The notes beneath the pieces are model-generated. The model had not been told where the DNA came from, made no database searches, and saw nothing but the letters and a program-made list of their open reading frames with translations. A stretch of 63,994 nucleotides of DNA, filler included, from Stramenopiles sp. TOSAG23-6 (taxonomy: Eukaryota): assembly GCA_900128565.1 (NCBI GenBank). It is 9 parts of 9 records of this genome, joined end to end, with 100 filler letters (N's around TTAATTAATTAA, not from the genome) between each part and the next. Parts side by side here need not be neighbours in the genome. Positions count along the whole stretch, not along the records: positions 28,973 to 36,104 come from LT636605.1; 8 more parts are not named here. One strand, written 5' to 3'. The position numbers were made by a program, and so were the translations under genes. This document shows positions 13,724 through 55,100 of this stretch, one piece after another. Numbering within the stretch: position 1 is the stretch's first letter; each line of letters begins with the position of its first letter.

Positions 13724-14342
13724 ATGTATTCTAAGCAACAGCAATATCTTCGCCATAGTTACTTATCGAGAAAGCTAAGATTAAAGGGTAATAGTATGTC
13801 GATTAAGCGAAATAGGGAATACAAAGAAGTTTCTAATAAAACAAAGACAGCAATTTTAATTGCATCAGGACTCCCAAAGAGTAAACCTCCTGTTCAAATG
13901 AATCGTCCAGCAACAGCTCAAAGCTCATCAAAATGCAAATACATCATTCAGTCCAAAAAAACTAAATTAAAAAAAAGGCGAGTACTTGTACGCAATCAAA
14001 AAGTAGAGTTACATCCTAAATCAGTGACTGATCAAAAAGTATATCGTCAAGCAGTAACTCGCGTTACTCAACAACCTAAACGGAAAATACATTCACATGG
14101 TCACATCAGTGCATACTCTGGAAAACGCGCAGATAATAGAAAATCTATGCACCATGCAAGAGTTCTTGTGAGAGCATTTGCAATCGAGAACTTTTCAACA
14201 AAGGCAAAACATAGTCTTGATATTACTCAGTGGAAAGCTATAGTTGCTGCGCAAATCATTCAGGCATGGTGGAAGCTTTTACTCGCCGAACGTCAAATGG
14301 TTCGATTATTCTTGGCTGAACAAGTCACAGATATACAGGCAT
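13724..14342 (+). CDS. Basic protein with an IQ-like motif, 3'-truncated at an intron starting 14343
   Basis: AAQIIQAWWK IQ-like motif, then the family donor GTATGTTTT; the contig ends in the intron. Confidence 0.6.
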
Positions 14343-14585
14343 GTATGTTTTATTTTTTTCAATTTCGAATTTATTTTTCGTACGAAATTTTGTACNNNNN
14401 NNNNNNNNNNNNNNNNNNNNNNNNNNNNNNNNNNNNNNNTTAATTAATTAANNNNNNNNNNNNNNNNNNNNNNNNNNNNNNNNNNNNNNNNNNNNATTTC
14501 AATTTTTTTTTGAAAATTTGTTAGGTACAAAATTTTTATAAAAAAAAAAATTCGAATTTTTTTGTAAAAAAAAAATAAAACATAC

Positions 14586-18838: not shown

Positions 18839-19825
18839 TTATGCATTCTGGAAAGTCGCATTTTGTTTCTTTATGACGGATTCTACATATTTTGCCATCT
18901 CCTCAACATATCCAGTCCCATTTTCTCTTTCTGTCATGCCATATGCTTCCATAAGCGTTTCCCCAGCCCATTTGTGTAACTTGGCATTCAATTTTAAATC
19001 TTCTGTATCTTTCTTGCCGTCACGGACTAATGGTAAAGCAGCAGAGCTTGCGAGAATGCCCACCAAACTTTTATAATTTTTTTTCGGTTTAATGTCCAAA
19101 GACTGCGCAAAATAACGACGTGCAGTGCGCAAGCTAGTAGGATCATTTTGCCCTGCAGTATAGCATAATTCAGCATAGTGAGTATGTCGTTCCGCGTCAA
19201 TAGGACTGAAAGTAATATACTCTTCTGCACAAAATTTAGCAAGTTTGTAGCGTCCCGTATCGCAGTACATTGAGTCTAACTCCTGCCAGGCATCCGCATC
19301 AGATTGAAAGATTTTCATATATTCATTAAGCTTTTTTATAGCTGCAGGGATTTTATTTTGCGCTCTCAGTATAGACACAATGCGTTTATGTGCCATGCGG
19401 TTAGCGGGATTCTCCTTAATAAGAGCTGTGTAAATATTTTCTGCCGCCTTGTAATGACTTTCCGCCGCACGAGAAGTCGAGCTAGCTGCCGCCAGAGCTT
19501 CACGGAGAAGACCTCGAAGTCTCCTGACCCGGGCACTTTCTGGTGTAAACTTCGACGACAAAATTTCTAGATATGTTTTAGACATTTCTATCTCATGTAC
19601 GTCTAGACAAGCTAAGAACACCTGTTCACACACAAACCAATAGTCGTCACCTAGAGAATGCGAGTAGTTATCCAAGAGAAGTAAACCAAACTTTTTACAT
19701 ATAAGCGGACGTCGTTCTCGGCGTCTATACATCAACTTTAGTACTTTAAGCATATCTGCCTTGGATAGCTTACAATCCTTGCCCTGCATAAGTAGCACTT
19801 TTAGTTCATCATTGGTGTCAATCAT
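18839..19825 (-). CDS. EMC2: ER membrane protein complex subunit 2 (TPR protein)
   Basis: LGDDYWFVCEQVFLACLD, SARVRRLRGLLREA, LNEYMKIFQSDADAWQEL and AKFCAEE. Confidence 0.9.
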   Translation of the reverse strand: MIDTNDELKVLLMQGKDCKLSKADMLKVLKLMYRRRERRPLICKKFGLLLLDNYSHSLGDDYWFVCEQVFLACLDVHEIEMSKTYLEILSSKFTPESARVRRLRGLLREALAAASSTSRAAESHYKAAENIYTALIKENPANRMAHKRIVSILRAQNKIPAAIKKLNEYMKIFQSDADAWQELDSMYCDTGRYKLAKFCAEEYITFSPIDAERHTHYAELCYTAGQNDPTSLRTARRYFAQSLDIKPKKNYKSLVGILASSAALPLVRDGKKDTEDLKLNAKLHKWAGETLMEAYGMTERENGTGYVEEMAKYVESVIKKQNATFQNA

Positions 19826-20035
19826 TCTACAGTATTTATTAAGACACTTTTTTAATAAGTTCTGAACGCGAATGGGATGGCCAATCCATCCAATTCTGAT
19901 TTCTGACTGTTCTGACTTGTATGAGATTACCGGGTAACGATTGACACGTGGGTTTGAAATACCTTACGAATCTCTCAATTTTAAGTGAATTGCAAACACC
20001 TTCACATTCAGAAAAAGTCTGAAACCTCAGAAAAA

Positions 20036-21580: not shown

Positions 21581-21882
21581 GTACGTTTTCATTATGAATT
21601 TCAAATTTATTTTTTTTTCGTACGAAATTTTGTACNNNNNNNNNNNNNNNNNNNNNNNNNNNNNNNNNNNNNNNNNNNNTTAATTAATTAANNNNNNNNN
21701 NNNNNNNNNNNNNNNNNNNNNNNNNNNNNNNNNNNGATAAGTTAATCGATGATTATGATCTTAAAACATGTAATATACCTAAAATTTCATTATTTGATTT
21801 TATGCCATACAGGCAAACAGGCTATTTACTCTTTTCTATACAACTCTAAAAAATTTCATTATTTGATTTTATGCCATACAGA

Positions 21883-24349: not shown

Positions 24350-25045
24350 TTAGTGTCTTTTTGACTTTGTCTTATTTCGTAATTTTCGTGATCGCTGCAC
24401 AAACATGTGTGTGTATAGAATGAAAAACCCAAATAGAAAAGCAGGGCCATATACAAAATATATGAAATCTTTAAGCAGAAATTTTGTACCTAGAAAAGTT
24501 CTCTCATGAACTTGGTCTTTAGCTAACCACATGACAGTTCCTTCTCCAAGAGCTCCAAGTGGATACATTGGTATGAATATGGTGTACCTGAGATATGTAA
24601 GTATTGATGGTGCACCGCCAAAGAATGATTTGCTAAATAACCAGGGGAAGCGAATCAACTCAGTTGAAACCCAAGCAATGTAGATTAGGAAAAGCGATTG
24701 TTCCTGATGCAAGGAAGGTGTGGAACACACAACAAGTATGAAAACCGTATTTCGTGCAATCAACTGTAATGCAACATTGAAAAATGGTGTAGGAAGAATA
24801 CCAGATAGGCTTAGCAGAAGCTCAAACATGGCGACTCGCTGACATAAAAGCATCCCCGAACCAGCCGCCAGATGATTAGTTTGGACAATTTTCTCAAAGT
24901 CCCAATCTTGAAGCACCGCATTTGTTATCATAGCAAGAGCAACACGATACCATAAAAAACATTGCGTCCCATTATAAAGTGTTGTGATTACTCTATGTAG
25001 CAATGCCTTTGTGTGCTCTATTTTACGAGGCGCGGAAGACATCAA
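24350..25045 (-). CDS. HACD: Very-long-chain 3-hydroxyacyl-CoA dehydratase (PTPLA/PHS1/HACD family)
   Basis: AWVSTELIRFPW, LRYTIFIPMYPLGALGE, and HMFVQRSRKL with a basic tail. Confidence 0.9.
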   Translation of the reverse strand: MMSSAPRKIEHTKALLHRVITTLYNGTQCFLWYRVALAMITNAVLQDWDFEKIVQTNHLAAGSGMLLCQRVAMFELLLSLSGILPTPFFNVALQLIARNTVFILVVCSTPSLHQEQSLFLIYIAWVSTELIRFPWLFSKSFFGGAPSILTYLRYTIFIPMYPLGALGEGTVMWLAKDQVHERTFLGTKFLLKDFIYFVYGPAFLFGFFILYTHMFVQRSRKLRNKTKSKRH

Positions 25046-25407
25046 ATCAAAGTCGAATTCAAAATGTTTCCCAAGATGGAATCAGATTCTAGCTATAGTA
25101 AGTACCTACTACGACACACACGTATAATACGTCATGGCCAAAAATTGCTACTTTTGATTTTTTTACAGTTATTTCGTGTTGATATATACGTACGGTAAAA
25201 TTAACCGATGAGATCGATGAGATCCAAAACTTTCGAAGATTTGTGTGAAAGAGAGATCTAGATCTCAAGATTGTGTTTTTCTAAAAATATTTGAAACTTT
25301 GTCGCATTGTATGCACCAAATATTTTAGAGAAACATTATAATATATACAACTTTTTCATTAGAAACCGTATTTGAGAACTTTCATTTAGTAAAAACGCTA
25401 TCGCCAA

Positions 25408-27085
25408 ATGTCTAATTCAGAATCGTTCGACGAAGAAAAAGAAAATCTGACCATTGCTTCCACAACGGAAGATCTCCGAGAAGAAATATTGTATTCAATT
25501 GAAGCTATTCTTGTTTCTCACCATGAGAATTTGCGTCGAACGGCTAAGATTGAACAACGCTTATCTTTATGCATGGATCAAGTTGAAACACCGTTTCCAA
25601 ATTGTTTGTCTTTGCTCATGCCTGCGCTGGTTCTTTTAGAGATAGATCTTTATGAATTTTTGCCTACGTACATTTTTGCGCTGCAGATAGCGATAGTATG
25701 CGTCGTTTTTCTTACATACATGCATACTAATTTGTGGAAAATAGTGAAAACTATTCAGGGTAATATTCAAATAAACAAAAACGCAACTACCAAAAAAGAT
25801 ACAAATAAATTGTGCGTAAAACTGTTTAAACATAACGACGATACAAATAAACGAGATTCTATAAATACAAAAGCAATTCCAATTCTATCGCCTCTGCAAC
25901 AAAAGACACCAACAAAGGAAAGTGATATGTCATATGTATCTTCTCTAGTCAAATCCATTGCTCTGTCAGCTGATACGTTACATAATTTAGGGCGACATGT
26001 ACGTTTTCATTTTAATTTCGATTTTTTTTTTTTTGTACCAAATTCTGTACCTAACAAATTTTTAAAAAATATATATTTTTTCACATACATGAAGAAGTCG
26101 TTAAACTTCTAGAGAATGGAAAGTGTGGTAATGTATATTCACTGGCTTTTGAATTAAGAGGAATATCTAAAGCAGTGCTTTTATGGCGATTAGCCCGTGC
26201 TTATTGGGAGTTAAGTGAATTGAGAAAAGCGGCAAAAGATTCAAAAGGAAGGATAAAAATGTCAAGACACGCAAAATATACGTTTTCATCATTATGAATC
26301 TTTTTTTTTTACTATGAAAATTTTCATAGGAAATTTTGTACCTAACAATTTTTTTTAGATTTTTTTTTGAAATATTTTTTTACAATATTTATGTTTCATT
26401 TGAAGCACTCAAAACTGATCCACTTTCTCCAATGGGATATATTTGGTATGCAATATGTAATGAGGAGGCAGCAAGTGCAGGTGGGATTATTGTTGAAAAA
26501 GTGAAAGCGGGTCAGGAGTTCAAAGAAAATGTACATTTTCAAAATTGAAACCCTAACCCTTTTTTTTTTCATAGTAAATTTTGTACCTAACAAAAAAAAA
26601 TTTTCAAAAAAAAAAAATATTTTTTCACAATACATGCCTCAAAGGCCTTGAAAATGCTTGAAGACAATGCAAATAGTGCTCATGCTTTCCGTGATAAATT
26701 TGGCCAAATTCTCGTATCAAATGATTTTGATATCACTGTGGAGAGTGAAAAATGCAATGTTTTATATATGCTTGGTCGATGGTCATATGAGGTGGCATGT
26801 ATCAGCTGGTGGGAGAGAAAAGCTGCTGAAGCAGTAGCTGGAAAGATTCCAGAATCATCATTCAATGAAGCCTTAGATATGTTCAATCAGGCTTTGAATT
26901 GCAATATTGAATTGAAACCAGGTTCAACAATAATGCACGCAATCTATTTGTGGAAGGGTAAAACTCTGATGAAGTTAAATAGAAAAGACGAAGCGGTCGA
27001 AAGTTTGAAGAAAATCACTACAAAATTACCACAAAATACTCCAGAGCAAAAAGCTTTCCACAAACGAAGTCAAAAATATATATGA
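25408..27085 (+). CDS. Regulator of microtubule dynamics (RMDN/PTPIP51)-like TPR protein; introns 25999-26090, 26278-26390 and 26531-26635
   Basis: LLWRLARAY, WYAIC and YMLGRWSYEVACISWWERKAA...PESSFNEAL. Confidence 0.85.
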
Positions 27086-28872: not shown

Positions 28873-29063
28873 NNNNNNNNNNNNNNNNNNNNNNNNNNNN
28901 NNNNNNNNNNNNNNNNTTAATTAATTAANNNNNNNNNNNNNNNNNNNNNNNNNNNNNNNNNNNNNNNNNNNNATTTCAAAAAAAAAAAACTTAAATTTGT
29001 TAGGTACAAAATTTCGTACGAAAAAAAAACGATTTTTTTGTTAAAAAAAAAAATAAAACATAC

Positions 29064-29936
29064 ATAAGTAGTGGATTGCCTCCAATGTCAAAATACATGC
29101 CAAGGTTTGAAAGTTGAACTTGTTTAGAAGAACAGAAAGTTACAAGTGCTTTAAACTCTTTCAAGCAAAAAGTCAATTGTGTGTCTATAGTTAACTGACT
29201 ATGAACAAAATCATTCCGTATTGTGAAAAAATATTTTTTTTTGGTAGAAATAAAAAAGTCGTTAGGTACAAAATTTCGTACGAAAAAATAAATAAATTTG
29301 AAATTCATGATGGAGGCGTACACAATTAATACTCAAATCTGTCTGTAAAGTATTATATACATCAGCGCCATCAAGTGTTGGATGGAACGAGGAAAGATTT
29401 AAAGATGTCTCTGACGCTTCTACGGCTAAAACAATTTCTTGCGTTCCAGCAATATGATCAACTAACTCTTTTAGCATTAAAGTGCGTGCAATCACCATAT
29501 TAGAAACCTTATCTTGGTCATATAAAGCCTGCATGATATCGGCTTCCTCGAAAACAAAAGAATATGTTTTTACCATACCATATTTACAGTGAACTTTGAA
29601 AATAAGTGCTGGTTCAACACCGTCTGTGTGGAGGGTCATGACAACACGCTCAACACTACGAGACGTCCGAAAAACACTAAGGCAACATTTCATCGATATT
29701 CGAATAGGCGGCACATTGCCAGTGGAACGAAAGTCTTCAAAGAAATCAACACAGAAGTCAAACTTTGAGAAGGCTTGTTTGGAATCACTGAGAGCTCGAA
29801 GACGCATCATGGAATTGCAAACTTCAATCGAAACTTCTTTTCCGATTTGAGCAAGGCATTTCAAAGCTTGAGATAGTATCAATAAATTATTGGCACCGAC
29901 CGACGCCATGAAAGATGCATTTCCAGAGGAAGACAT
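29064..29936 (-). CDS. RAD9: Checkpoint clamp subunit Rad9, 3'-truncated; intron 29216-29321
   Basis: ALKCLAQIGKEV, LRALSDSKQAF, CKYGMVKTY, TFCLKEFKAL and YFDIGGNPL. Confidence 0.9.
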
Positions 29937-30541
29937 GCTGCCAAATAGTAGGATCTACTAGTTCTAAACTTGATTTATACACACTATTATAATGATAGGC
30001 TAAGTACAAAAAATATGGATATCATGACAGTCCAAATATGATCTTTATTCATTATTCATACTTCATGTTAACGAAGAAGAACTGTTCAACTGTTTTGTCG
30101 TTCGTTGTGACTTTGACAACCTTTAACTTAAGTTAAGTTAAGTTTGACTTTGACAGACTTGACTGCGACTTGACTAAGTCTTTGACATTGAAATAAATCA
30201 ATGAAAAAATGAATCAAATTTGTCAAAAACAGTTTTGTTCCACTAGTATTAAAAGAAGAAATTTTTTTGAAAATTATTTTTATGTTTTTTCAAATTATTA
30301 CTGCGATTGATTACTTGCCGCGCGCCCGCAGCGACTACAGTATATTTACTATCTAGCGGCTGCTGCAGCAGCTATATAATAAAATAGCAAACGATACCTC
30401 TCTGAGATCTTTTTATCGTCAAACTGATAGATATTAGTAAGAAGAACTGATTGACAATTATTTTCAAATAGTAAGTGTATTATTTATTATTAGCAAAGTG
30501 AAAAGTGAAACTCGGGCAAAACTTAAACATACAAAGAAACA

Positions 30542-30973
30542 ATGTTAACGAATATTTTTCATATAATATTTTTAGCTTTAATTTTTGTCGGAAAAATCTC
30601 AAATGCTGAGGCAAAACATCACTCGCGCTTACGACGTAAGCTTAAGGCTTTACAGCATCATCATAATGGACAGAAAAAAGTACAAAATGACCAAAACGGT
30701 AAAGAAATTTCTCGTCGTCTTCTTCCTGAAATTCTTGGAGCGAATGTTTTTCGCTTTACAAAGGTTTCTAAAACAGACGACGATGACGACAAGAAAAAAG
30801 GCTTGACTAAACTTCAAATAAGCAATATCATTAGTCTTTGTAATGATGCGGATGATAATGGTCTTCCTCAAAAAGCCTGTATGGATAGAGAATTGAAAAA
30901 AGTGCAAAGTGAAGAAGATAACGCAGCAGCCTTAGACATAAATTACGCAAATGGACTCAATGAGTATCCTTGA
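30542..30973 (+). CDS. Small secreted hypothetical protein
   Basis: Signal-peptide-like MLTNIFHIIFLALIFVGKISNAEA; 143 aa. Confidence 0.6.
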   Translation: MLTNIFHIIFLALIFVGKISNAEAKHHSRLRRKLKALQHHHNGQKKVQNDQNGKEISRRLLPEILGANVFRFTKVSKTDDDDDKKKGLTKLQISNIISLCNDADDNGLPQKACMDRELKKVQSEEDNAAALDINYANGLNEYP

Positions 30974-31537
30974 GACGAAACTTCAACTGAAATTTCTTTT
31001 TATTTTGAATTGCCAAATCGGCTATCATTGTATAGATTGTATAACAATATCAATATAATGCTTGTATTACTATTAGTAAGAAGATAAATAGTTATATTAG
31101 TTTAGTAAGAAATGAGGATCGATGAGGATTAAAAGAAACTCTTTTTTTTTCGTGAGAAAATAAAATGTCGCGAAATTTGAAATTCGAATCTAATACTAGT
31201 ATTAATATATAATAATTATATAATAACTAATAAATTCTCCTTTTATAATATTATTATCGTAATTTTCACTTCAATTTTGTTTTTTTTGAGGTTTTTGATG
31301 TGATGGCGATGCGCGATGATGATGGCCGATTTTTCATTTTTTTGACTACTGTTTCGCACACAAACAAAGTAGATAGTGATGATCTAAGATCAAGATCATC
31401 ATCAGATTTTCTCAGTCTCTCTCTCTCACTCGTGTCTAAAGGCTAAAGTTATCGTAGCTAACTTCTTCGCCAACGAAAGTTGTACACTGGTTGTGTTACG
31501 TGGCATATTTATCCATTTAGATCAATACGAAGCCCAT

Positions 31538-34500
31538 ATGTCATCACCCAACCGAGATGGACTTTGGCATCCGCGGGAGCGTGACTATATTGGTGAAAAA
31601 GCGCAATTTTTTCTTTCGAGAGAACGCTGCAGTGACCATCCACTTGTTACAGAGGGGAATTCTTCTATGAAAAATGCCCGAGTCGTAGAAACGGAAAATT
31701 CCCCTCAAAAATCAAAACAAAAATCAAAACAAAAATCTTTATCTACGTCAGAAAATACAGATATCGATCCGTTATCTATGATGTTGACAGAGTCATGTGG
31801 GGACCCTCTCACTTCGATGATGTCTAATATGGACATTAAGTCATCAAAACCAATGCTAGAAAGGGCAAGCATTCACAGAGGCTCAATCAGTCGACCATGG
31901 AAACCTCGCTCGAAGGGAGAAGAGAAATGGGATGAAAAATCAGCTGAGATATTGAAAAGCTGTACACTAACAGGAAAAATTCGTTTTAACGTAAACATCA
32001 TGGATGATTCCGATGCTCAGACTGCTGGTGAAGAAGTAGGTGTATCTCTGGAAAAAGCACGACACAGACTCGAAGAACTTGAAAAACGTGCTAAATCTAG
32101 CGCTTTAACAGAAGAGTACAGTCAAACGGAGTATGTTGATATGATAGATGAGTTAAAAATACAAATCAGAGAAGCATGGGAGGGCAATGAACGTGTCAAC
32201 TCTCTAAAACGAGCAATTCAGTGTGCGAAAATGTTAGGTTCAACAAATGTACCTCAATTTTATCCTTCCATGTTTGTTTTAATATCAGGGGTTTTGGATT
32301 CATTTGGAGATCTTGTGTTTACCCGTATGAAGGCGCGGAGTGAGGAAGTCACGGGTACGTTTTCATCATGAATGTAAAAAAAAAATATTTTGTATGAAAT
32401 TTCGTACCTAACGATTTTTTTTCTTTTTTTTTTTTACAACACATGTGTTCCGTTGAAGGATGATTTTACCCATGAAGATGTTTGTCTAGAGGCTAAAGAA
32501 ACTTGTCGTAATTGGTTTTACAAAATCGCATGTATTAGAGAACTTCTTCCAAGAGTGTACATTGAGATGGCATGTACGTTTTCAAAATTGAATTTCGAAT
32601 TTTTTTTTTTTTTTTGTAAAAAAATTTTGTACCTAACAAATTTTTTTTATTATCCAAAAAAAAAAAAAATAATATTTTTCCAAAATACATTAGTACGATG
32701 TTATAGATTTCTCACATCGGATAAAGACTATCTTGCAATCATTACTAGGATCTCGCATATTCTTAGAGGCATTGGTGACCCTATGGTTGCTTTATATGCC
32801 AGGGTATATCTTTCTAGAGTAGCTCATTCACAACAACTCGATAGGTCGGATCCCACGATATCGTCAATTGATGACTATATATTCTCTATAGGCGAATTTA
32901 AACAGAAAAAAATACAAAATATAGCAAAATCAGCAGGGATTACTTTTGATGAGTTTATGTATGTTTTATTTTTTTTTTTAAACAAAAAATCGATTTTTTT
33001 TTTTTGGTTTCGTACGAAATGTTATACCTAACAATTTGTTTTTGAAATATTTTTCCAAAATACATGTCATTACAGTCTCATGGATTAGAAATGTTACTTC
33101 ACTACTCTGCAGAATTTATGACCAAAAAACAATTTTCAACGATTATGAAGAGATATTCTACTATTTCGGGAGAGAGTTCCGTATTAGTTCCTATAATTCG
33201 AGGAATGCCACCCAAATTTATGGATTTGAATGCGATGAAGTTTGTACATCTAATCAAGGAAAGTAAGATGTGTGATCGAGATGAAAGAAAGGTGGATGAA
33301 GCATATCCATTTGATACTTCACATGTACGTTTTCATCATTCATTTTAATTTCGAATTTAATTTTTTTTTCATACGAAATTTTGTACCTAACGTAAAAATC
33401 AAATTTTTGGAAAAAATTCACAAAATATTCGGATGCATTTATGTACGTTTCATATGAATTTCTATTTAAGTTTTTTTTTCATTTGAAATTTCGTACCTAA
33501 CGATTTTAATGTTTGAAATATTTTTTTATAATCCATGGCTTTAGGTCAAGGATTTTTGGATCACCCTCCACCTAAAGATCTTCGAATACCAGTACTCAAT
33601 GAAGCTTGGAAGGTTATTAAATCTGAAAAGTCATTTGCTAGATACACGTACGTTTTCATTTCATTTCATTTTCGAATTTCTTAATTTTTTTTGGTACGAA
33701 ATTTTGTACCTAACAAAATATTTTTTCACTAAAAAAAAAAAAATATTTTTCACAATACACAAAATGTGTAAAGACGTATATGGCTGTACTTGTGGAACAC
33801 TATAGTGAACGAGAGGTACTAATCCTCTTGAAGGATCTTGTGAAACACGCTAATCAAGTGGAAAACAAAGATATTGAAGATAATTTAGAGGCCATTGAAT
33901 CAACGGTTGAGTCCGTTGTGAAAAATGCATCAGATTTCGGTATGATTTTGACTTCAGAACATTTTATGGCAGTGATGGATTTATTTAAGAGTGACAAGAA
34001 AACAACACTTTGTAAATCAATGTTGACTCATTTTTGTACTACATCTGGTACAACGTCCGATCCTGTTGTCATTCATACAGTATTTGACTTGGCACGAAAT
34101 CTACATGATTCAGTTGATTTGTTATCTACTGTGGAAGAGCGCGAAACTATGGCAAATCTTATTTGCAAATTTATGGAAAAAGTTGATTTTGGGCGTGATT
34201 TGGAACAGCAACTTAATGTATATGTTGATTGTCGTTCAGGCTTTGCAAACTTAGACTCTGTGAATGTGTATGTGTTCAAAATTGAAATTTTTACCTATTT
34301 ATTTTTTCGTACGAAATTTCGTACCTAACGATTTTTTTTAAACTAAAAAAAAAAAAATTCACAATACATCCGGCTTGTTGTTTCAACTGCATCTTTGGTA
34401 ATGCGTGCTCATAAAATTATGTCAGGTCGGCATAATCGTAAAACTGCTGCATTTACTAAAGCTTGTTTGGCATATTGTCATGTTACTATCCCTACAATTG

Positions 34501-35500
34501 ATTCATGTACCTTTCAAAATTAAATGTTAATTTTTTTTTGGTATGAAATTTCGTACCTAATGATTTTTTTCTACAAAATTTTTCACAACACATGTTTTAC
34601 TCGGATGAAACTTTTCTTACATTGTGGGAGAGTTGCATTAATAAATCAGTGTTTACCTCAAATGGAAACAATGCTTAAAGAAGCAATCAATCTTATTGGT
34701 GATGCTCCTGCGATAGACTACATACCTAACTATTCGCGCCTTGGCACAAAGCAGAATACTGAAGGGTGGATGATTTCTTATATTTCTTCTTTATTATCAC
34801 TTCTTGTAGTTATACCAGGGAATCCAGACCCAAAGAAAGGAGCATTTTTTATTTTCAAGGGCTTACTAAAAGCAGTACAGAAATATCCATGGGTTTTGAG
34901 TCAAGGTGGAAAGACGGATGTGTACGTTTTCATTTCAATTTCGATTTTTTTTTTCGTACGAAATTTTGTACCTAACGATTTTGCTTTTGAAATATTTTTT
35001 CACAATACGTGTACATCAAAATGATATCAATGTTGTGTTGTTATTGCCAAAAGCGTCTTCCATATCACGTCCCTGGTGTATCTTCAAATGATGTATTGTA
35101 TGGTACAAGTGACAGAGAATATATTAAACAAGCAAATATTTATATTAATGATTTATTTGACGATGTGTGCCGCGAACAGTTACCCAAATTAATTGTGGGT
35201 GGACAGGAAGAAAAATTGACAAAGATAGGTATGCGTATGGCAATATCTTTACTTAATCAAATTCTCGCTTCAGTTGACATAACACCAAAAACAGCAAAAT
35301 ACGCAACGAAACTTCTGAAATTAGTAGCTAAAAATAAGACAGATCCTGAAACAAGTGAATATATATATTTTGCTAATACTGTTGAGTATCTCCATAAAAT
35401 GTCAACAGTTGCTGAAAGGGAAAAATCAACTACTGTAAAAGAAATCATTTCTCTTCATTTATCAGCTGTTTCTTGTCTAGATGAAACCAAGCGAAAATAA
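31538..35500 (+). CDS. VPS35L: VPS35 endosomal protein-sorting factor-like (C16orf62, Retriever subunit); 9 introns
   Basis: PQFYPSMFVL, AKETCRNWFYKIACIRELLPR, RGIGDPMVALYARVYL, LNEAWKV, DFGRDLEQQL and RKTAAF. Introns at 32355-32444, 32574-32690, 32959-33065, 33325-33428, 33443-33536, 33648-33760, 34268-34369, 34507-34593 and 34922-35010. Confidence 0.95.
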
Positions 35501-35546
35501 ATGGTATATAAAATTCATCAGGTTTACTTTCTTACAAGTAAGTCAA

Positions 35547-35690
35547 ATGTATGAGAGAAACAATGAATCTTTTTATTGAATTATGTATGAGAGACACAAT
35601 GAATCTTTTTATTGAATTATGTATGAGAGACACAATGAATTTTTTTATTGAATTATGTATGAGAGACACAATGAATCTTTTTATTGAATT
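35547..35690. repeat. Tandem repeat, 4 x 36 nt (ATGTATGAGAGACACAATGAATCTTTTTATTGAATT), with an inverted copy at about 36061-36104
   Basis: Units start at 35547, 35583, 35619 and 35655 with no spacers between them. Confidence 0.9.
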
Positions 35691-36284
35691 AGCTTTGGAA
35701 TAAATTAGATATGAAAATACAATGTGATAGAATAGAAATATGTCATAAAATTTTGACTAAATAATTTTATTTTCATATGCATTTCACTATCAATATTAAC
35801 TATGAATATTAACTATGAATATTAACTATGAATATTCCCGTTTATTTTACCTCACTTTTACGATGACCAAATCTAAGGTTTTACAATTTTGATGTGTTTG
35901 TAGTCGTGTAATAAAACTATCTTCTTAGGATTAAGGATCAAAATCATATTATTCAGATAATCTTTTACGAAAAGAGTTTTTTTTTTTTTTTTTTTTTTTC
36001 ATAAAAAATTTCATACCTAAAACAATTTTTTTTTTTTTTTTTTTTTTTCATACAAAATTTCATACATAATTCAATAAAAAGATTCATTGTGTCTCTCATA
36101 CATANNNNNNNNNNNNNNNNNNNNNNNNNNNNNNNNNNNNNNNNNNNNTTAATTAATTAANNNNNNNNNNNNNNNNNNNNNNNNNNNNNNNNNNNNNNNN
36201 NNNNGTATTGTGAAAAAATATATATTTTTTTGTTAGTAAAAAAAATCGTTAGGTACAAATTTTACTATGAAAAAAAAAGAATAC

Positions 36285-37176
36285 AACCTACATCTTCTCC
36301 GTCATTAGGTTCAATGAAATCTATGCGTTGTTTCAAATTATCCAATGCGGTTTTAACTTCCATATCCTCAATATACTTATCAAAATCAAGGTCTTGCGTA
36401 AATTGTAAAAGATCCTCCAATTCTTCTTCCTATAAAGTTCAAAAATATTTCAAAAAAACTAAAATTTGTTAGGTACAAAATTTCCTACGAAAAAAAAAAT
36501 ATTTGTAAAAATTTTAAAAAAATCTAGGGTTAGGATTAGGGTTAGGGTATACATCAAATACATCCAACTCATCTTTTTCTTCTTGTTGCTTTCCTTCCAA
36601 ATATGCCCATGCAGGTTTTTTTCCTTTACTAGCTTTTAATTTCTTTTTCTGCGCTTTCGATAATTGAAGTTGTTGTTCTTTCTTATGCAACTCTGCACCA
36701 AGATCTGCTAAATCACCTAACGATGATTCATCATCATCAGATGCTTCCAACTGTTTCGTGTCTTCTTCTGTTTCAGGTTTGTTTGAAGAAACACCTCTTA
36801 TTTTATTGCGAGCAGCTTGTTCACGTGCCGCAAATATTTTACGGTTTTCTTCTTTTTTTTGTTCTTTTTGTACAATCTCATTTTCTATTTTTTTTTTATC
36901 GGATTGAAGCTTCTTTAACCAACGTTTATGTTTTTGTACAACTGATAACTTTTTCTTTGGTTTTTCGTGTGATATTGGTTTTTTAGCTGGGTTAAGACCA
37001 AGCTCTTTATTAGTAACTAGGTTTCCACCCGCTCTGAAGGGTGCTCTGCCTTGTGATTTACTCCCTGCTGCACCATGAGCTCTAGCAGCACCAGCGGCAG
37101 TACCAGCAAATGGGCGGTTACACAACATAACCCCTTTATAATTACCGATTGACGGTGCTCCAGTACCGGTCGACAT
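36285..37176 (-). CDS. Hypothetical coiled-coil protein, 3'-truncated; intron 36430-36552
   Basis: IGNYKGVMLCNRP N-terminus, KPAWA, and spliced EEELEDLLQFTQDLDFDKYIEDMEV. Confidence 0.75.
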
Positions 37177-37633: not shown

Positions 37634-39010
37634 TCACCACATTTTTTCTATACCATGTTTTATCATAGCATCCTTTGAAACAATAGTAACATCACCACAA
37701 CTTGCCCATACTTGTGGTGTTTGTTCACAATCCCAACGCCATTTATTGTACAAAAATATTTCAAAATTTGTTTTTTTTTGTTAGGTACAAAATTTCCTAT
37801 GAAATTTTTTTTTTAAATGTTTTTTTTTTTAAATATATAGTGTTTAACTATTTTGATACAATAAACGTACAACCAATGACATATTGACCGGGTGGTAAGT
37901 TGTCAGGGATCTTTACTAAATCAACAATTGCAGGAATTTCTTTTGTCTTATCTCCAGTTAATGGATTAGGATCAATATGATATCCCCAACATATATTGTG
38001 AAAAAAATTAAAAATTCGAAATTGGTCAAAAAAAATTCGTTAGGTACAAAATTTCGTACGAAAAAAAAACAAAAAAAAAAACACTTACAAGTTTCATCAC
38101 ATCCTTCAGGAGGTGGGAATTGTGGTGGTGAGCATGATTTCCCAGAGTACGTTTTTCCTACACCAATACCACCACAACTAGGAATTGGATTTCGTGTCCA
38201 TTGACTTCCTTCTGGGACAGTTCCTTTTGAAATTCGCATGGCATCAATCACAACTTCATGGCCATTATTCCATCGTAAAAATTGACTTGTACCAGAAAAT
38301 TCAAGTGGTGTTTTTTGAAAGCATTCTTCAGTAAGTGGCTCAGAGGAAGGACACAGACGGTAGGAGTATCCACCACCATGATTAGCTGTAATACCCCAAG
38401 ACACTTCAACAACTGAACCAGCGACCCAAGTGGTATTTGACCATGTAACCCGTGGAAGCCATTTGGAACCAAAAACGCCTTGCTTATGTGCAATCGTTTC
38501 GGTGCCAATTCCACCAGCTTTATCATTATTTACAGTTGAACCACCAGATACACCACATGCATCTAATACAGGAGCTGCGCCAGGATGTCGCCAAGGGTGG
38601 TGTAACGTCCAATCTCTAGGTAGTGGAAGAGTAGAGGGTCCACGAGCACCATGCCAACCAGGTCTCAAATTTCCTGGTTTGGTATTATTAACATTGTATG
38701 TTCGTAGCTCTTTTGGAAGAGTTGCATTTGGATATTCTACTCCACATGCGCTTGTGAAATTCATAAAATTGTTGAATGTGTCGACACATTTGTCACAGCC
38801 AATCGTACATCCTTGTGAAAACCACATACACGCCAAACCTTCACAGCCAGATGCATTGATACCTATAGGGTATCCTGGTAAAGCACCCGCATTTCTAGAT
38901 GGAGGATAATTCATTGCTCCATGGCCTTGCACGGATATCAATATACCTAATAAATATGATATGATTGATAATATAACACCTGTTTTGAAATTATTAAAGT
39001 AATGCATCAT
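37634..39010 (-). CDS. Secreted LPMO-like (His-brace) protein; introns 37991-38088 and 37741-37870
   Basis: Signal peptide ending VQG, then HGAMNYPPSRN; ANHGGGYSYRLCP; spliced PGQYVIGWRWDCEQTPQVWASCGDV. Confidence 0.8.
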
Positions 39011-39221
39011 AGATTGTCTTTTGTAAACCAGTAATATTGTAGAACCAGTAACTACTAATTGTTGTTGTGTTGAGTCAAAAAAAAAAGTCCAAATGTCATA
39101 AATTGAATGATGTCCGGTTACCCGGTACACCAAAAAAAAATTGTGTAGTATTTTTTAATAATTTTAATAATCATTTCATGCATATTCTCGACACAGTACA
39201 GCATTAANAGGTTGTCTACAG

Positions 39222-41129: not shown

Positions 41130-41970
41130 ATGACTTCAATAATTCCAAAGACAGGAGATGCTGAAGCGTCCACGCAAACTTTTAACGAAACTCCTGAAGA
41201 AAAATTCTCAGGCTACCATTCAGATGATAAAGAAGATTTTGAAGATTCCGAAGATTCCGATGATGATGTGTATGAATCAAAACGTGCTGCTTTAGCCAGA
41301 GGTAGTTTGGCAGATTGGGCTAAAAGTGACGACGAGGAAGCTAACGAATTATTAGAGCAAACTCCTGAAATCCTAACAGGAGAAAGGAAAGAAAAATATA
41401 GAGGTCGTTCTCTTGTTGCTGGTCTTATTGCAGCGATTGATAATACACGCAAAGAACTCCGCAAGCCAGATGAACCTCCTGAACCTTATTATTGGGAAGC
41501 TGGTTATCCAGAAGACCCTGAAAACGTTGGCGTCACACAAAAAGTTGGAGAAAATGTCCATTGGATAGGTAGTAAAGGCGTGAGTGGTATGGAATACGTA
41601 GGAGAGACTGTTGTTAATTTCTTTGGTCTTGACCGAGATAAGTACCAATGGATGCGAGACCAAGCAGTACGTGATAGACAAAGACGTCGAGATCGTATGT
41701 TTTATTTTTTTTTAATTTTGATTTGTTTTTTTTTTTCGTACGAAATTTTGTACCTAACAAATTTTACGTTTTTTTTTTNACAACATAGGTCGGTTACAAA
41801 AATCAAAGCAACGTGCTTTATTACTCCAACAACAGTTAGATGCGGAAAATGAAGAGATTGAGAGATTAGAAAAAGAACTTTTAAATAATCCTGATACGAA
41901 AAATGATTCAATCGATGAATCTGGTGCATCTTCAATTGATGTAATGAAAATTGAGGAAATAAAAAAATAA
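41130..41970 (+). CDS. Acidic hypothetical protein; intron 41695-41788 (GT-AG)
   Basis: After splicing, the ORF continues as RLQKSKQRALLLQQQL...IKK-stop. Confidence 0.7.
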
Positions 41971-43249: not shown

Positions 43250-43428
43250 ATAAAATGGTAAATTTGTACCTTGGACTACTACTAGTACCTCGATTTTTTT
43301 TTTTTTTTAAATTTTATTCTTTCCGCATNNNNNNNNNNNNNNNNNNNNNNNNNNNNNNNNNNNNNNNNNNNNTTAATTAATTAANNNNNNNNNNNNNNNN
43401 NNNNNNNNNNNNNNNNNNNNNNNNNNNN

Positions 43429-44746
43429 TTTTTGTATTTTTTGTATTTTTTGTATTTTTTGTATTTTTTGTATTTTTTGTATTGTTTTTGTCTATAGTTG
43501 AAGCATTTATTGAATTTTTGTCCACTAGTCCAGGCCCAGTAGCATGATCCATCATTGCCATTTGCAGTTGCTCAGGAGACATTCCTCTTGTGTCTACAGT
43601 TTTTGCCCAAGGATAGGGATTAGGCGGTGGTTTACCCTCATTTGAACCTTCTTCACCATATAAATTAATATTTTTTCGACGAAGAAAGCCCTTCTTGACA
43701 GCAGCAGACTTTTTATTTCTATTTGTAGTGTCTTCACTATTATTTAATGTACATAATTTATTTGACGTCTTATTGAGTTTACTTTTAGTATCTTCGGCTA
43801 TAGCAGGTATATTAGATTCACTAAGTTTCCCAGAAGCATCAAGCATTTGTATGAGAGGCTTCTTTTTAGTATTATTTTTACATTTTAAGTTGTTGTTTTC
43901 GATCTCGAGAGAATGCGAAAGAGAAATATTTGGTGAATGACTTTGATTTGAATTACTTTGACTTCTAGAGACGCGCACTTTCTGGAGCACATCCAAAGGA
44001 CTATCATTGTTATTATTCGGATTATTCTGTATTTTTTCTCCCTGACAAATATCACCACTTTCAGCTACATCGCTCTCTGGGGTAATTAAGTCACTACTAA
44101 TATCAAATTGTACTGGTTGAACCCCTCGAGGTCCAATACCACCCTTATAAACACTACGTATAAATTTCCAACCTGGACGAAGTATAAAATCAGTTCCATG
44201 TTCGTCAACCATCCACTTTAAAGCCAAATCAGCAACATACACCTTGAAAGTATTGTCGTGCGCAGCGGTGTCAATGACCCAAGGATTGAAAACAACATCA
44301 ACAGCTACTGCAATACGACCAGAGGAGTCTTTAGTCTTCCGCAATTCGCCAACCAGTAGAGGGATTTGTCGCGCTGCATGCCCAGGCATTTCTATTTCAA
44401 TTTCTTCACCACTTGCAGTGAGTGGTAATTGAACACCAGGGTGTTTGCACAGGTTTACAAATAGTTTTGGTGCGTTTGGATTTCCCCTTTCCAATTTGCG
44501 ACCCTTGATAACAAATCCCGGCAGAGGCTCAATATAAGACTGCCGTTTTCGAGATTTCATATTCTTTAAAGTTTCTTCACCTTCTTTTAAATGCTTTGCT
44601 ACAAATTCTTTGTACGCATCGGGATCATTTGTCGACATATCGTCTAACATACGCCATAATCCGTCTGCTTCCGCACTTTGTTTCCGGATATCCGCAATCT
44701 GCTTTTTCGTAGGCTTCAACTTCGTGCCAAGTGGTTTATCAAACAT
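43429..44746 (-). CDS. PIH1-domain protein, N-terminal part (R2TP/DNAAF-type co-chaperone)
   Basis: LWRMLDDMSTNDPDAYKEFV, IEPLPGFVIK, KLFVNLC, IPLLVGE and AVDVVFNP. Confidence 0.8.
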
Positions 44747-45162
44747 TATGGTACGATGCAATTAAATTGATATTGAGTCGTCAATAATGAAGCGACGTAA
44801 TTACCAGAATTTACACTAAACTTGTGCTTCGCGGAACTACTACGCAGTATTTAGTTCCAGAAGTTACCTGTGATTTAGATTCTTCTTAGTAGTAGTACTG
44901 AATCCTCGCGGAAAATTGGATTTTTTTCCGTTAAACCATTTGAAGCAAACAACCGCCAAACGAAGAGTCGGTTATATTTTTTGGGTCTAAAAACAGGTCA
45001 ATATCGTTTTGATTTGGGTACTAGTAGCTAGAGGAAAGTAAAATTATTCTTATATGATGATGAATTTATTATTTAAAAATTGTAAAGCGAAGACAATCGT
45101 CTAATTTGATTTTGAACCATTCTGTATTATAAACCTTTTTTTTTTTTTTTTTTTTTTTTTTT

Positions 45163-50490: not shown

Positions 50491-50642
50491 ATATTTTGGA
50501 AAAATATTTAAAAAAAAAAACTAAAATTTGTTAGGTACAAAANNNNNNNNNNNNNNNNNNNNNNNNNNNNNNNNNNNNNNNNNNNNTTAATTAATTAANN
50601 NNNNNNNNNNNNNNNNNNNNNNNNNNNNNNNNNNNNNNNNNN

Positions 50643-51048: not shown

Positions 51049-51240
51049 TCTATTTAGATTCAAGAAGGTCGAACTCTTTTCTTTGATTTTTGGTTAATTA
51101 ATTTCGTAGAGAACGTTTTTTTCCGATTTTTCGTGTTTTTCAGGAACTCATAATGAACAGCAAAGAACCAGCAAAGAACAGGAATTACTTGCTTTCGCTT
51201 TCAAAGCATTCAGCATATACACCCTATTATATCATTCAAA

Positions 51241-51858
51241 ATGGAGAAAACAACATTCTTGTCAATACTTCTTTTAGTATTGACTACTGCACTTCAAACT
51301 GAATGTGCAACAGAGATTGAAGACGTTTCTTCAATACCAGAACCAGAATACATGCCCGATGAGCCTCATGCTACTACTCCATCTTTCGACAACTTGCCAG
51401 ATGATAATCTTGTAAGAATACTTGAATTTCTCCCTGTGAAAGATTTTTTAAAAGCTTCTCAAGTTTCAAGAAATTTTCGTCGTCAATCTCGTTTAGTAAT
51501 GTCTCCTGAAGAATTTAATACTTTAAAATATATTCGTGCTCAGATAATGGACAACCCAAGTTTTAAAAGTACTTTACCCGAAGCAGTTTTTCTCAGTCAA
51601 GCTAATGCATCGTGTGTAAAGAACTTTGAAAGTGAAGATGAATTTCAGGAGTACTTGACCGAGAACGTAATATCGATAGTCCCTGATAGGGATAAAAAAA
51701 TTTATTATGCTTATTATTGTAAAAATGCGACAACCGGAAGGATCACTGTATGTGTCGCCTGTAAAGGCTACCTTCATGGGGGATATTCATCGAATTATGG
51801 GAGTGATAAGAGTGGCATCGTCAAAGATGAAAATATACACTCTGTACTTTTGAAATGA
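51241..51858 (+). CDS. Signal peptide + F-box protein (duplicate)
   Basis: Identical translation to 7881-8498. Confidence 0.75.
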   Translation: MEKTTFLSILLLVLTTALQTECATEIEDVSSIPEPEYMPDEPHATTPSFDNLPDDNLVRILEFLPVKDFLKASQVSRNFRRQSRLVMSPEEFNTLKYIRAQIMDNPSFKSTLPEAVFLSQANASCVKNFESEDEFQEYLTENVISIVPDRDKKIYYAYYCKNATTGRITVCVACKGYLHGGYSSNYGSDKSGIVKDENIHSVLLK

Positions 51859-52150
51859 AAATGGAACAACGCTCCAGATGAAAATGTACATTCTCTACTT
51901 TGGAAAAGCAAACAAGTAAAACAATGATTTATTTTTCATAGTAAGAAAATCCATGAAATTTCAAATGTTTTGTTGTGAATGAGAATTCGATCCAACATTG
52001 CATAAAGTGCGCCAAACCATTGGATACATCCAAGAAAAAAAGAGATTTTATTAAAGGGAATTGTAAAAATAAAGAAACCTTTTTTATATCAATCTTTATA
52101 ATCCAATTTTATTTTGATTTTAACCGGTATGCTCTTTATACTATTAAATT

Positions 52151-55100
52151 TCACCTTCGTTGGCGGCTACTTCTGCTCTTGCTCCTTATCCTTCTGCTCT
52201 TGCTCTTGCTCCTTATCCTCCTGCTCTTGCTCTTGCTCCTCACCCTCCTGCTTTTGCTCTTGCTCCTCCTCCTGCCCTTGCTCTTGCTCCGGGTCCTCTT
52301 GCACCTACATGGAAGGAAAATCTGTTGCATTAAAATCTTCTTTGTAATATAATTTATATTGGAAAGGCAATGTTGAAACATAAAAGTTTTAAACCTCACT
52401 AAAACTATCGAAAAGATCACTAAAACTATCATCGAAAAGACGAAACCTCTTTTCTTCCAAATAGATGCATTATATTCGCACACAATGCGCTTATGTTGGC
52501 AGTCTCTGCAGTATCTCACTTGTATGTGAAATGCTATAAAATTTCCCTCTCCAGCGAATAATGAAACTTCATCATTATCAAATGTACATGTCCAATAGGG
52601 ATGATAATTCGTCTTTAAAACAACAATGCCAGGAACCCACTCATGTTCATTGCCAGCTTCTACAAATTTTGCGTTAACTCTCACAGAGCATTCATACATA
52701 TTGACTCCAACAAGTTCATCAAATATCTCAAGGTTAAGTGTGTCTCTGACTTCTTGAGTAAGGTCGCCATTAGTATATTTTTGTGGCATTTTATTAGCGT
52801 CTGCTTTATCTTGAAATGCTTCTTTATTCAAATATAGTTCACTTGCAATTTCAATGTCACGATTTCTCTCTTTATCGGCGTGAATTTCTATTTGTGCGAT
52901 ATATCCATGATTACCAGTAGACTTTTTATCCTTTAAAGATGCATTGGTACTTTTAGGATGCCCGAGTTTAAATATATTTAATGTTTTGTTGGCATCCCTT
53001 AATTTGACCGTGACAGCGACAATTTTGCTCTGATACAATCGATCAGCCGAAATCATTGTAGTCATTTCGCCTTTGGTGGTATCATTATCAATGACAATTA
53101 TTGCAACTGCTCCAAGTTTCTCCATGGCAGTTACTTTATCTACAAATGTACATTTCCCCCGACGTACAATGACAATAGATCCTTTAATCATTTCTTTATT
53201 GTGAGTGGGTATCTCATCATTGCATCCATCCGCTGGATCTGCCCAAATCAAGATTGAACTCTTTGCCATTTCAGTAATTGAAAAATCAGCTGCTACGCAA
53301 GGAACAGTTTTGATCATTTCATTGTCATTATTGCTAGTAGAAGATACATTTTGATAAAAAGTAACTTTGTAGACACTATTAAAAAACTGACCACCGCACA
53401 TACAGCCATCCCCATTGTGTGCTCGAATTCCTTTTTGCCTGCATTCCTCCGAAAAACAACACGGATGATTTGTGAAAAAATATTTCAAACATTTGAAATT
53501 CGTTAGGTACGAAATTCCATACGAAAAAAAAATATAAATTTGAAATGGAAGAGGACAACATACATGGCATGAATTTTTTGTATCTTTTTTTCTATCACTA
53601 AGTGAGGAACCACACCAACATTCATCACCATTTTGAATAGCAGCAAATTTTTCTCCTTTACGTTTACATATTTCAACACACTCAACGGGATGACTGTCTT
53701 GTTTTCCAGAGAATGTAAACATCCGACTTTGTTTGGATTTACCATCTTCAAAACATCCTTCATAATAATCTCCACAAACTTTCTGCTGTGAATGAAGTTT
53801 AATCATTTCGGGACCTGATAGAGTCAGCGTACAATATGTTTTAGGTTTCGTAGATTTAGTTCGCTCACGAAGTATAGTAGTTGATGCATCCGCATCATTT
53901 ACGGTTTGCTTGGAATTCATCATTGATGAAGATTTACTAATTTTTAAAAAATCTTTCGCAATACCTTCCGGTACACTTTCTGAATTAATTTTTAATTGAA
54001 ATACGCTAAAATACCCAAAAGGCTTAATAGACTTGACTCGAAAAAGTACAAATGGTGTAATTGAAACATGCTCATTAGATTTTGCTAATTTATCCCTTGA
54101 AATAGACACTAATTCAATTTTTTCTAAAAAGTCTGGATACGTCATCGCATCTTTCTGAAGATAATACTCTTTTGTTGGCATTACAATGTATTGTGAAAAA
54201 TGTGTTACATTCGAACTTTGTTAGGTACGAAATTTGGTACAAAAAAAATAAATTTGAAATTAATAATGAAAACGTACATGTATTGTACATTAAATTGTTC
54301 GCAATGCGATAGCTGAGTGTAATCAAATGTGGACACTGCCAACAGAGCTGCAGGAGCAAGCTGATGAAACCTCGGACCAAGCATGTCAAATCCATGTTCT
54401 TGTAGAGGTGCGTTTACATTTATTGTGAAAAAATATTTCGCGGATTTTTTTTATTAGGTACAAAATCTCGTATTAAAAAAAAGTTGAAATTAAAAAAAAA
54501 ATAAACATACTACCCATTTCGAATTAAAGTGCCAAAATCCAGCAAATATTCGTCCAGGTTTTAGTTCCTGTTGTCGTTTCAGAGTAAACACCAAGTCAGA
54601 GAACGAATGAGCCCAAAATGATTCTTGAAATCCCCCAGTTTTGTTTTGATAATACAAATGCCCACTTGCTTGACCCCATTTTGAATTTTCTTTATGCAAT
54701 GCAAAATTAGCACGTTCAACATTTCTTGAAATTATTGCATATCGGAATAATATTGAGCCGGTAAACATACAGAAAAATAAGTTTCGAATTATGGAAATAT
54801 TTCTTCTTGTTTTTTTTTTTCTGGTAATTCTAATAATTCTTTGATACAATATAATAAGTATTTCCATAAATATCGCGGATAGAAAGAGACCAAAAATGTG
54901 TACACCGCAAATAAACCGATGCAAATGTAAATCTTTCGAAAAAGGAAACATATTAATAATGTTTCCAAAAAATGCTGTTTTACGTCCCGAAAACATGAAA
55001 CATTGTATGATAAAAGAGACAATTATCCAGAAAGACAGATCTACGAGAAATAATAGTTTTGGTACAGGTAAAATGTCTTTGTGTACGATTTTCTGTATAA

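Follow-up and report, generated by a model that had tools for sequence, protein, structure and literature searches.

The GT-AG rule of introns is nearly universal. What, then, removes nine copies of one short repeat from a conserved gene when none of them ends in AG? The question arises in a 63,994-nucleotide (nt) window from Stramenopiles sp. TOSAG23-6 (GenBank assembly GCA_900128565.1), the whole stretch of DNA analyzed here, and concerns a plus-strand gene at 31538-35500 that is predicted by homology to encode VPS35L. VPS35L (C16orf62) is the large subunit of the retriever cargo-recycling complex, an alpha-solenoid protein that binds VPS29 and VPS26C, represented by the human structures 8p0v, 8sym, and others. 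We place a probability of roughly 0.7 on the reading that this gene is split by nine copies of one introner-like element, each spliced at its GT and after two target-derived bases.

An earlier note on this DNA, made from the sequence alone, had named the gene as VPS35L, and homology searches identified it as an ortholog. Exon 7 (query 33762-34268) matched human VPS35L (PDB 8p0v_O) with an E value of 1.8e-25 across chain residues 505-670, and the nearest full-length relative, database protein P0002, matched the human protein at 2e-140 across chain residues 76-900. Pfam returned a weak Vps35 match on exon 7, below the cut-off, and a HMMER scan of 1.84 billion representatives retrieved 479 relatives at E<=0.001. 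The region 31300-35700 holds a single plus-strand gene composed of ten open stretches. Joined between the start codon (ATG) at 31538 and the stop codon at 35498-35500, the ten exons form a 3060-nt sequence whose 1019 codons are not interrupted by a stop. All three standard stop codons close the other reading frames, and a ciliate-type reassigned code is thus not evident. The spliced product is colinear over its full length with 14 selected full-length homologs at 30-45% identity, the nearest being about 45% identical or less. Conservation does not extend to the N-terminal 90 residues. At 31706, one seawater DNA contig has an in-frame 12-nt deletion within a short lysine/serine/glutamine repeat of exon 1; this difference is a length polymorphism in the non-conserved N-terminus. 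The gene and its contig are laid out as follows.

28973..36104, no strand: contig with the VPS35L gene (N runs, sequence)
31538..32354, plus: exon 1, from the first in-frame ATG (ungapped RNA contigs within it: X6 record 9, X8 records 25 and 26)
32355..32444, plus: intron 1, family copy, GT..AT, 90 nt (junction in a variable region, not pinned by homology)
32445..32573, plus: exon 2 (spliced frame)
32574..32690, plus: intron 2, family copy, GT..AT, alternatively AT..AC, 117 nt (frame, family alignment, homologs)
32691..32958, plus: exon 3 (spliced frame)
32959..33065, plus: intron 3, family copy of the GTATGTTTTAT subtype, GT..AT, 107 nt (frame, family alignment, homologs)
33066..33324, plus: exon 4 (the first piece of RNA contig X7 record 19 stops exactly at 33324)
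33325..33428, plus: intron 4, family copy, GT..AT, 104 nt (frame, family; absent from X7 record 19)
33429..33442, plus: microexon, 14 nt (needed by the frame; ungapped to homologs; fits the 12 letters plus shared AT of X7 record 19)
33443..33536, plus: intron 5, family copy, GT..AT, 94 nt (frame, family; absent from X7 record 19)
33537..33647, plus: exon 6 (frame, RNA contig)
33648..33760, plus: intron 6, family copy, GT..AC, 113 nt, the two preceding bases also AC (frame, family, homologs)
33761..34267, plus: exon 7, the largest conserved block (Pfam, HMMER, PDB matches)
34268..34369, plus: intron 7, family copy, GT..AT, 102 nt (frame, family, homologs)
34370..34506, plus: exon 8 (spliced frame)
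34507..34593, plus: intron 8, family copy, GT..AT, alternatively AT..AC, 87 nt (frame, family, homologs)
34594..34921, plus: exon 9 (RNA contig X7 record 22 inside)
34922..35010, plus: intron 9, family copy, GT..GT, equally GT..AC at 34920-35008, 89 nt (frame, family, homologs)
35011..35500, plus: exon 10, stop codon at 35498-35500 (RNA contig X7 record 23 inside)

With the 5' end of each intron fixed at GT, we recomputed the boundaries and enumerated every shift that leaves the mRNA unchanged. Under no equivalent shift does any of the nine introns acquire an AG 3' end, as the earlier note had proposed. Its tally of ends across these 87-117 nt introns was likewise reproduced, with seven in AT, one in AC (33648-33760), and one in GT (34922-35010), as were all six of the junction peptides that it quoted. 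The tally admits one refinement: intron 9 can equally be written at 34920-35008 as GT..AC, so that all nine take the form GT...YAY (seven AT and two AC). As tabulated, the last three intron bases read YAY in eight of nine cases, or in nine of nine with intron 9 shifted, and YAY also stands directly before the 5' site of six introns. The canonical U2-type features are otherwise in place (5' GT, branch motif, and pyrimidine tract), with the terminal AG present in 0/9. From the branch motif to the 3' end, all nine introns lack AG, and in seven the first AG downstream of the 3' end would shift the frame.

Comparison with homologs supports eight of these nine junctions directly. Across junctions 2-9 the spliced product aligns without gaps to 14 of 14 full-length homologs, and the residues of the microexon are aligned to residues in all 14; gap columns at junctions 3 and 9 reflect insertions in one to three outlier homologs. 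The alignment of the predicted spliced protein, which the earlier note had suggested as a check, thus agrees with the junctions at these eight positions. The database protein P0001 (931 amino acids, 99% identical in exon 7) corresponds to 31667-35500 and is evidently the deposited model of the same VPS35L gene. P0001 avoids the non-AG junctions, and at eight junctions it shows lost conserved residues or intron-derived residues where P0002 agrees with our spliced product. Other genes of the assembly are likely mis-modeled in the same way.

RNA evidence was sought among read sets containing the VPS35L stretch, which comprised an organism-labeled DNA set, seawater metagenomes, and metatranscriptomes; three RNA runs (X6, X7, and X8) and one DNA run (X3) were examined. 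PolyA-RNA contigs cover several VPS35L exons. One of them, X7 record 19 (197 nt, depth 2.7), consists of 33246-33324, 12 further letters, and 33535-33640. This pattern fits removal of introns 4 and 5, because the last two bases of the microexon are identical to the last two of intron 5. Among the pieces listed, a subset at low depth, the three RNA runs contained no contig that bridges any of introns 1-3 or 6-9. A search for near-identical protein fragments from transcripts that could span the junctions gave six matches, all <=65% identical. In the independent seawater DNA run X3, exon-intron continuity is seen in records 2, 5, and 6, and contigs break inside the repeats. Between the window and wild contigs, 8 of 11 single-base differences in the exons are synonymous, against a random expectation of 21.5%. 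The earlier claim that the frame is intact and that the gene is functional rather than a transposon-disrupted pseudogene is upheld by the 1019 stop-free codons, the ungapped junctions 2-9, this synonymous excess, and the polyA-RNA contig.

The nine introns align as a single repeat family in which the 5' site, the branch block, and the 3' block are conserved. They start with GTACGTTTTCA or GTATGTTTTAT; a near-palindromic core ends in GTACCTAAC and is followed by a T run and, at the intron end, by CACAATACAT or a close variant. The conserved signals are a U2-like 5' site (GTAYGT), the branch motif TACCTAAC, and a T tract with the 3' block, which ends in ...ATAC plus two bases. The branch motif is close to the yeast TACTAAC, and the combination of GTAYGT with TACCTAAC fits U2-type, yeast-like signals. 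The distance from the branch A to the 3' end is 33-54 nt in the nine introns and 28-54 nt across the 28 unique copies considered below. With one mismatch allowed, the 9-mer of the branch motif is found 49 times in the window, where 6.7 occurrences would be expected; 0 of 100 shuffles reach that count. AG is scarce across the family introns: downstream of the branch site it occurs 6 times where 19.3 would be expected, and upstream 10 times where 49.1 would, counts that come from copies sharing descent. The terminal inverted repeat of the family is only ~5-6 bp (ATGTAY/RTACAT). Telomere-like TTAGGG/CCCTAA repeats occupy the 5' part of three copies, at ~36524-36549 (copy 36561-36430), at ~26548-26562 (copy 26531-26635), and in copy 23244-23105. 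The central palindrome was considered as a functional hairpin and rejected, given that its 5' arm is degenerate in many copies and its fold z-scores are ordinary; the branch motif is kept in those copies.

A hidden Markov model (HMM) built from the nine introns and searched with nhmmer returned 54 family matches at E<=0.01 in the 64-kb window, five of which repeat a duplicated contig. No clear antisense copy relative to a host gene was found among the 54; four reverse-strand matches are weak (E>=0.001), and three of these overlap the palindromic core of a sense copy. For a frame test we took matches at E<=1e-4 extending into the 3' portion of the model, and 34 of these had a recognizable 5' site. 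When cut at the family-defined ends, 31 of the 34 have at least 30 open codons on each side; the remaining three are one copy with Ns and the two copies that adjoin the microexon. Defining intron ends from the open reading frame (ORF) alone was dropped as too permissive, the A/T-rich intron tails often being open. Summed DNA depth was 1e3 to 5e4 in intron bins and 3-6 in exons; this is a sum over contigs and not a copy number, and the high value indicates that the intron sequence is highly repeated. Among VPS35L relatives, the ORFs of P0017, P0005, and P0007, on contigs of 29-71 kb, are uninterrupted at all nine intron positions, although these proteins are <=45% identical and the basis of their gene calling is uncertain. 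This comparison of sequences suggests lineage-specific gain of the nine introns. No empty-site allele was seen in DNA run X3. An Rfam scan of the window gave no match, and a search of Joint Genome Institute (JGI) metagenome contigs with a 19-nt family core found three loci, all chance matches without flanking similarity. The look for a transposase consisted solely of Pfam scans of 19 long ORFs.

To describe the ends across the window, we compiled a census of 28 unique copies, from which the duplicated block and the N-containing copy were excluded. Of these, 27 start with GT and 1 with GC. At the 3' end, AT accounts for 22, TT for 2, and TG, GG, AC, and GT for 1 each, with AG in none. YAY forms the last three bases in 21 of 28 copies and precedes the 5' site in 14 of 28. 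In 18 of 28 copies, the dinucleotide that precedes the 5' site is identical to the one that closes the intron; shuffling gives a mean of 13.7, and 0.6% of 10000 shuffles reach 18. This match extends to three of the six non-AT ends (AC/AC, GT/GT, and TT/TT), and a three-base match at the borders is not significant (7 vs 5.3). We read this terminal dinucleotide as one of the two copies of a 2-nt target-site duplication that favors AT; such a duplication would explain why excision restores the frame. Across the window, two family copies have a 5' end other than GT, 23244-23105 (minus strand, GA) and 22988-22894 (minus strand, GC), and both lie in an amino-acid transporter gene.

Copies in unrelated genes tie the family to introners, which are recognized by many similar copies occurring as introns in unrelated genes; here they do so in the VPS35L, Rad9-domain, and Aa_trans genes. 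The Rad9-domain exons cover profile positions 1-187 and 190-238 on either side of copy 29321-29216 (GT..GG), an exact fit to the family-defined cut. In the Aa_trans gene, five exons combine into a stop-free frame. Four of the five follow the order of the profile (3-157, 202-258, 266-306, and 313-384) across four copies. A second multi-intron gene (11151-12440, minus strand) had only two weak homolog matches and was of no use for junction tests.

Under the reading we favor, a short AT-rich element of 87-117 nt would have inserted nine times into VPS35L and would act there as an introner. Each copy would bring its own 5' splice site, branch motif, and T tract with 3' block. Insertion by DNA transposition would make a 2-nt target-site duplication, the major spliceosome would cut at the GT of the element and just past the last two bases, and excision of the element together with one copy of the duplication would restore the original reading frame. 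Since the acceptor is not AG, 3' site recognition would have to tolerate, or even prefer, a pyrimidine at the last position.

Several observations weigh against this account. Junction 1 falls inside a length-variable stretch and is not pinned by homology. The bridging RNA is one contig of depth 2.7 that spans introns 4 and 5 of the nine, and its 12 bridging letters are placed by length only. In another RNA library, X6 records 10 and 12 extend 16 and 31 nt into introns 2 and 9, which could be intron retention or DNA carry-over. A transcript across the gene, also suggested earlier as a check, agrees for introns 4 and 5, which are joined out in X7 record 19, but X6 contigs run into introns 2 and 9. 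At intron 2, an AG three bases downstream also keeps the frame; we disfavor it on the sole ground that its use would delete a residue found in 14 of 14 homologs. The duplication signal is moderate, with 10 of 28 copies mismatching. Frame class, which outside VPS35L is the whole basis of the boundaries, does not distinguish ends that differ by 3 nt. For the Aa_trans intron 22470-22379, taken as TT-ending, the profile count is out by one residue, and the intron may end 3 nt later in CAT; by this offset, non-AY ends are not firmly established. Two family-like copies, 36561-36430 (minus strand) and 41695-41788 (plus strand), look AG-ending and join open frames, and AG and non-AG acceptors may be used side by side. 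The source label of P0001, a single string, names a MAST assembly and suggests that the host is a MAST-3 marine stramenopile (MAST); the nearest relatives come from pico-size-fraction ocean metagenomes. A fritillariid tunicate, first suspected as the host, was set aside in view of this label and of these relatives.

Among other routes by which the introns might be removed, a transformed minor (U12-type) spliceosome that tolerates varied 3' terminal bases is unlikely. Three of the nine introns can be written AT..AC and the CCTAAC at the end of the branch block resembles the U12 motif TTCCTTRAC, but the other six cannot be so written, [G/A]TATCCTT is found at none of the nine 5' ends (GTACG, GTATG, or GTACC), and GTAYGT with TACCTAAC better fits the U2-type consensus. 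According to the available text of a study on Physarum (bioRxiv 10.1101/2020.10.12.336362), non-canonical U12-type introns there include GT-AT and were seemingly spread by transposons, yet their branch A lies 9-12 nt from the 3' end, compared with 28-54 nt here. Somewhat less likely still is structure-guided, non-spliceosomal excision with cut sites set by pairing of the ends, as in euglenid nonconventional introns. The short inverted repeat at the ends (ATGTAY...RTACAT), the pairing of ends in six of nine predicted folds, and the direct repeats on the two sides, a trait that the accessible sources also describe for euglenid and Amoebophrya elements, would suit this route. Fold energies are nonetheless ordinary (z scores span +0.64 to -2.32, and between 5 and 153 of 200 shuffles fold equally well), the terminal helix is just 4-8 bp and AU-rich, and the palindrome has a degenerate 5' arm in many copies in which the branch motif persists. 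Moreover, the best conserved blocks are the 5' splice site, branch motif, and T tract, for which a structure-only route has no need. Because the signals are U2-type and fold stability is ordinary, we favor the major spliceosome with relaxed 3' choice over both of these routes.

The remaining explanations would deny that non-AG splicing occurs at all. Ordinary GT-AG splicing as in the public model, with the non-AG junctions as a modeling artefact, could appeal to the way P0001 is built, to the in-frame AG 3 nt past intron 2, and to the two AG-like copies elsewhere. We judge it highly improbable in light of the damage to P0001 at eight junctions relative to P0002, the absence of AG between branch and 3' end in all nine introns, the frame-shifting first downstream AG in seven, and an RNA contig (X7 record 19) that stops exactly at 33324 and resumes at 33535. 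Nine repeat insertions within 4 kb, from a family that breaks the assembly elsewhere, might instead indicate a decaying pseudogene full of miniature transposons. Exact removal of all nine, however, restores a frame of 1019 codons, residues are conserved across the junctions, 8 of 11 coding differences are synonymous, and several exons are represented in polyA RNA, leaving decay scarcely credible. Elimination from the DNA of an expressed nucleus, in the manner of ciliate internal eliminated sequences, would account for short AT-rich segments with a repeated border dinucleotide of which one copy is left behind, and is about equally remote. The seawater DNA run retains exon-intron continuity (X3 records 2, 5, and 6), no precise DNA-level joint occurs among the joints listed (278 further joints exist) and the sole precise joint is in RNA, the elements carry spliceosomal signals, and there is no evident ciliate-type code.

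The window that surrounds the gene consists of ~7.1-kb contigs in order of decreasing length (7149, 7146, 7140 ... nt) joined by linkers of 44 N + TTAATTAATTAA + 44 N, such that genes on either side of a linker are not neighbors. By their Pfam matches, the genes listed below appear to be an ordinary eukaryotic gene set.

165-1256, minus: kinesin motor (Pfam)
18842-19963, minus: EMC2-like TPR (Pfam)
24353-25081, minus: PTPLA (Pfam)
29322-29954, minus: Rad9 (Pfam)
37961-39154, minus: LPMO_10-like domain (Pfam)
43376-44761, minus: PIH1 (Pfam)
7150-7249, 14396-14495, 21636-21735, 28873-28972, 36105-36204, 43329-43428, 50543-50642, and 57756-57855: linkers

Family copies are cut off at contig ends, indicating that the repeats break the assembly. 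The stretches ~7750-14395 and ~51110-57755 are 100% identical over ~6.6 kb at an offset of 43360 nt and include six family matches; the identity probably reflects assembly redundancy and not a real duplication. Just past the VPS35L stop codon, 35540-35690 holds by eye ~4 tandem copies of a ~36-nt unit. An inverted copy of this unit lies at 36060-36104, the contig end, with degenerate family-like pieces between, again judged by eye.

Repeated introns spliced at a non-AG end have so far been described mainly in one group of tunicates, and related introns are known from other lineages. The larvacean tunicates Fritillaria borealis and F. pellucida carry non-canonical introns derived from miniature inverted-repeat transposable elements, with YAY ends that are often AT or AC (PMC13326754, PMC11282704). 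As far as the available parts of these papers describe, they share with the present family short repeated introns bearing transposon marks, AT or AC in place of AG at the 3' end, a terminal YAY that often also precedes the 5' site, a retained T-rich tract, and positions apparently not common to relatives. Our host is seemingly a unicellular stramenopile and not a chordate; in addition, the 5' site here is a good GT in nine of nine introns, whereas the main F. borealis classes start with AG, and a single family dominates.

Introners have been surveyed in Micromonas, Aureococcus, Chrysochromulina, Symbiodinium, and others (PNAS 2022 PMC9860276; PNAS 2025 PMC12130899). In the accessible portions of the two surveys, they are high-copy intron families of aquatic hosts that carry part of the splice signals and lie sense-oriented in genes, all of which applies here. 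The target-site duplication supplies or abuts the other border and splicing restores the coding sequence; the present family may resemble them in this too, with a moderate duplication signal. Unlike the family described here, the published introners use GY-AG borders, with only rare 5' GC or GA. From the same portions, annotated introns are the starting point of the two surveys, and the later one, from 2025, set aside families with unfamiliar sites that lacked transcript support (PMC9860276, PMC12130899). Surveys based on annotated GY-AG introns would therefore have missed a family like this one.

The parasitic dinoflagellate Amoebophrya has introner elements among its non-canonical introns (BMC Biol 2021 PMC7789003). 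Judging from the part of that paper available, it likewise combines repeated non-GT-AG introns, direct repeats at the borders (3-5 nt there), and inverted repeats in a marine protist. No terminal dinucleotide dominates in Amoebophrya and its 8-20 nt terminal inverted repeats form hairpins, whereas here we find a canonical 5' GT with a branch motif, an inverted repeat of ~5-6 bp, and an AT-dominated 3' end. U12-type introns, as the available Physarum text presents them, also tolerate non-AG 3' ends, include GT-AT, and have a proposed transposon spread (bioRxiv 10.1101/2020.10.12.336362); the present family differs by the absence of [G/A]TATCCTT and by a branch motif far from the 3' end. In the accessible parts of the literature on MAST lineages, including PMC5778133, PMC12614181, 10.64898/2026.04.17.719054, and PMC8163842, with supplements outside this scope, non-canonical introns are not reported. 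One MAST-3 assembly is described in the available text as having too few complete protein matches for the training of a gene finder (PMC5778133). To the similar introns known in Fritillaria and Amoebophrya, the present case adds an introner family with non-AG acceptors, probably in a stramenopile.

A broader proposition, which we hold tentatively and at a little under even odds, is that a free-living unicellular stramenopile of the MAST-3 lineage has been invaded genome-wide by one introner family whose acceptor is the 3' block plus two target-derived bases, and not AG. If this is true, AG-independent splicing by the major spliceosome would have evolved independently outside animals and alveolates, in parallel to Fritillaria, and published gene sets of the lineage would be systematically mis-spliced. 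GT-AG-only gene models, damaged at eight junctions in this gene, would distort protein catalogs, completeness scores, and functional inferences for uncultured grazers. Fritillaria and Amoebophrya, the large-scale breakers of the GT-AG rule found in this analysis, offer the best means of learning why the spliceosome depends on AG. Should another ocean lineage, unrelated to these and very abundant, carry a uniform family, it would provide a natural comparison for changed 3' site factors, a useful one because the acceptor is the family's sole departure, with a good 5' site and branch motif retained. Such a lineage would also strengthen the case that transposon invasion drives relaxation of the spliceosome.

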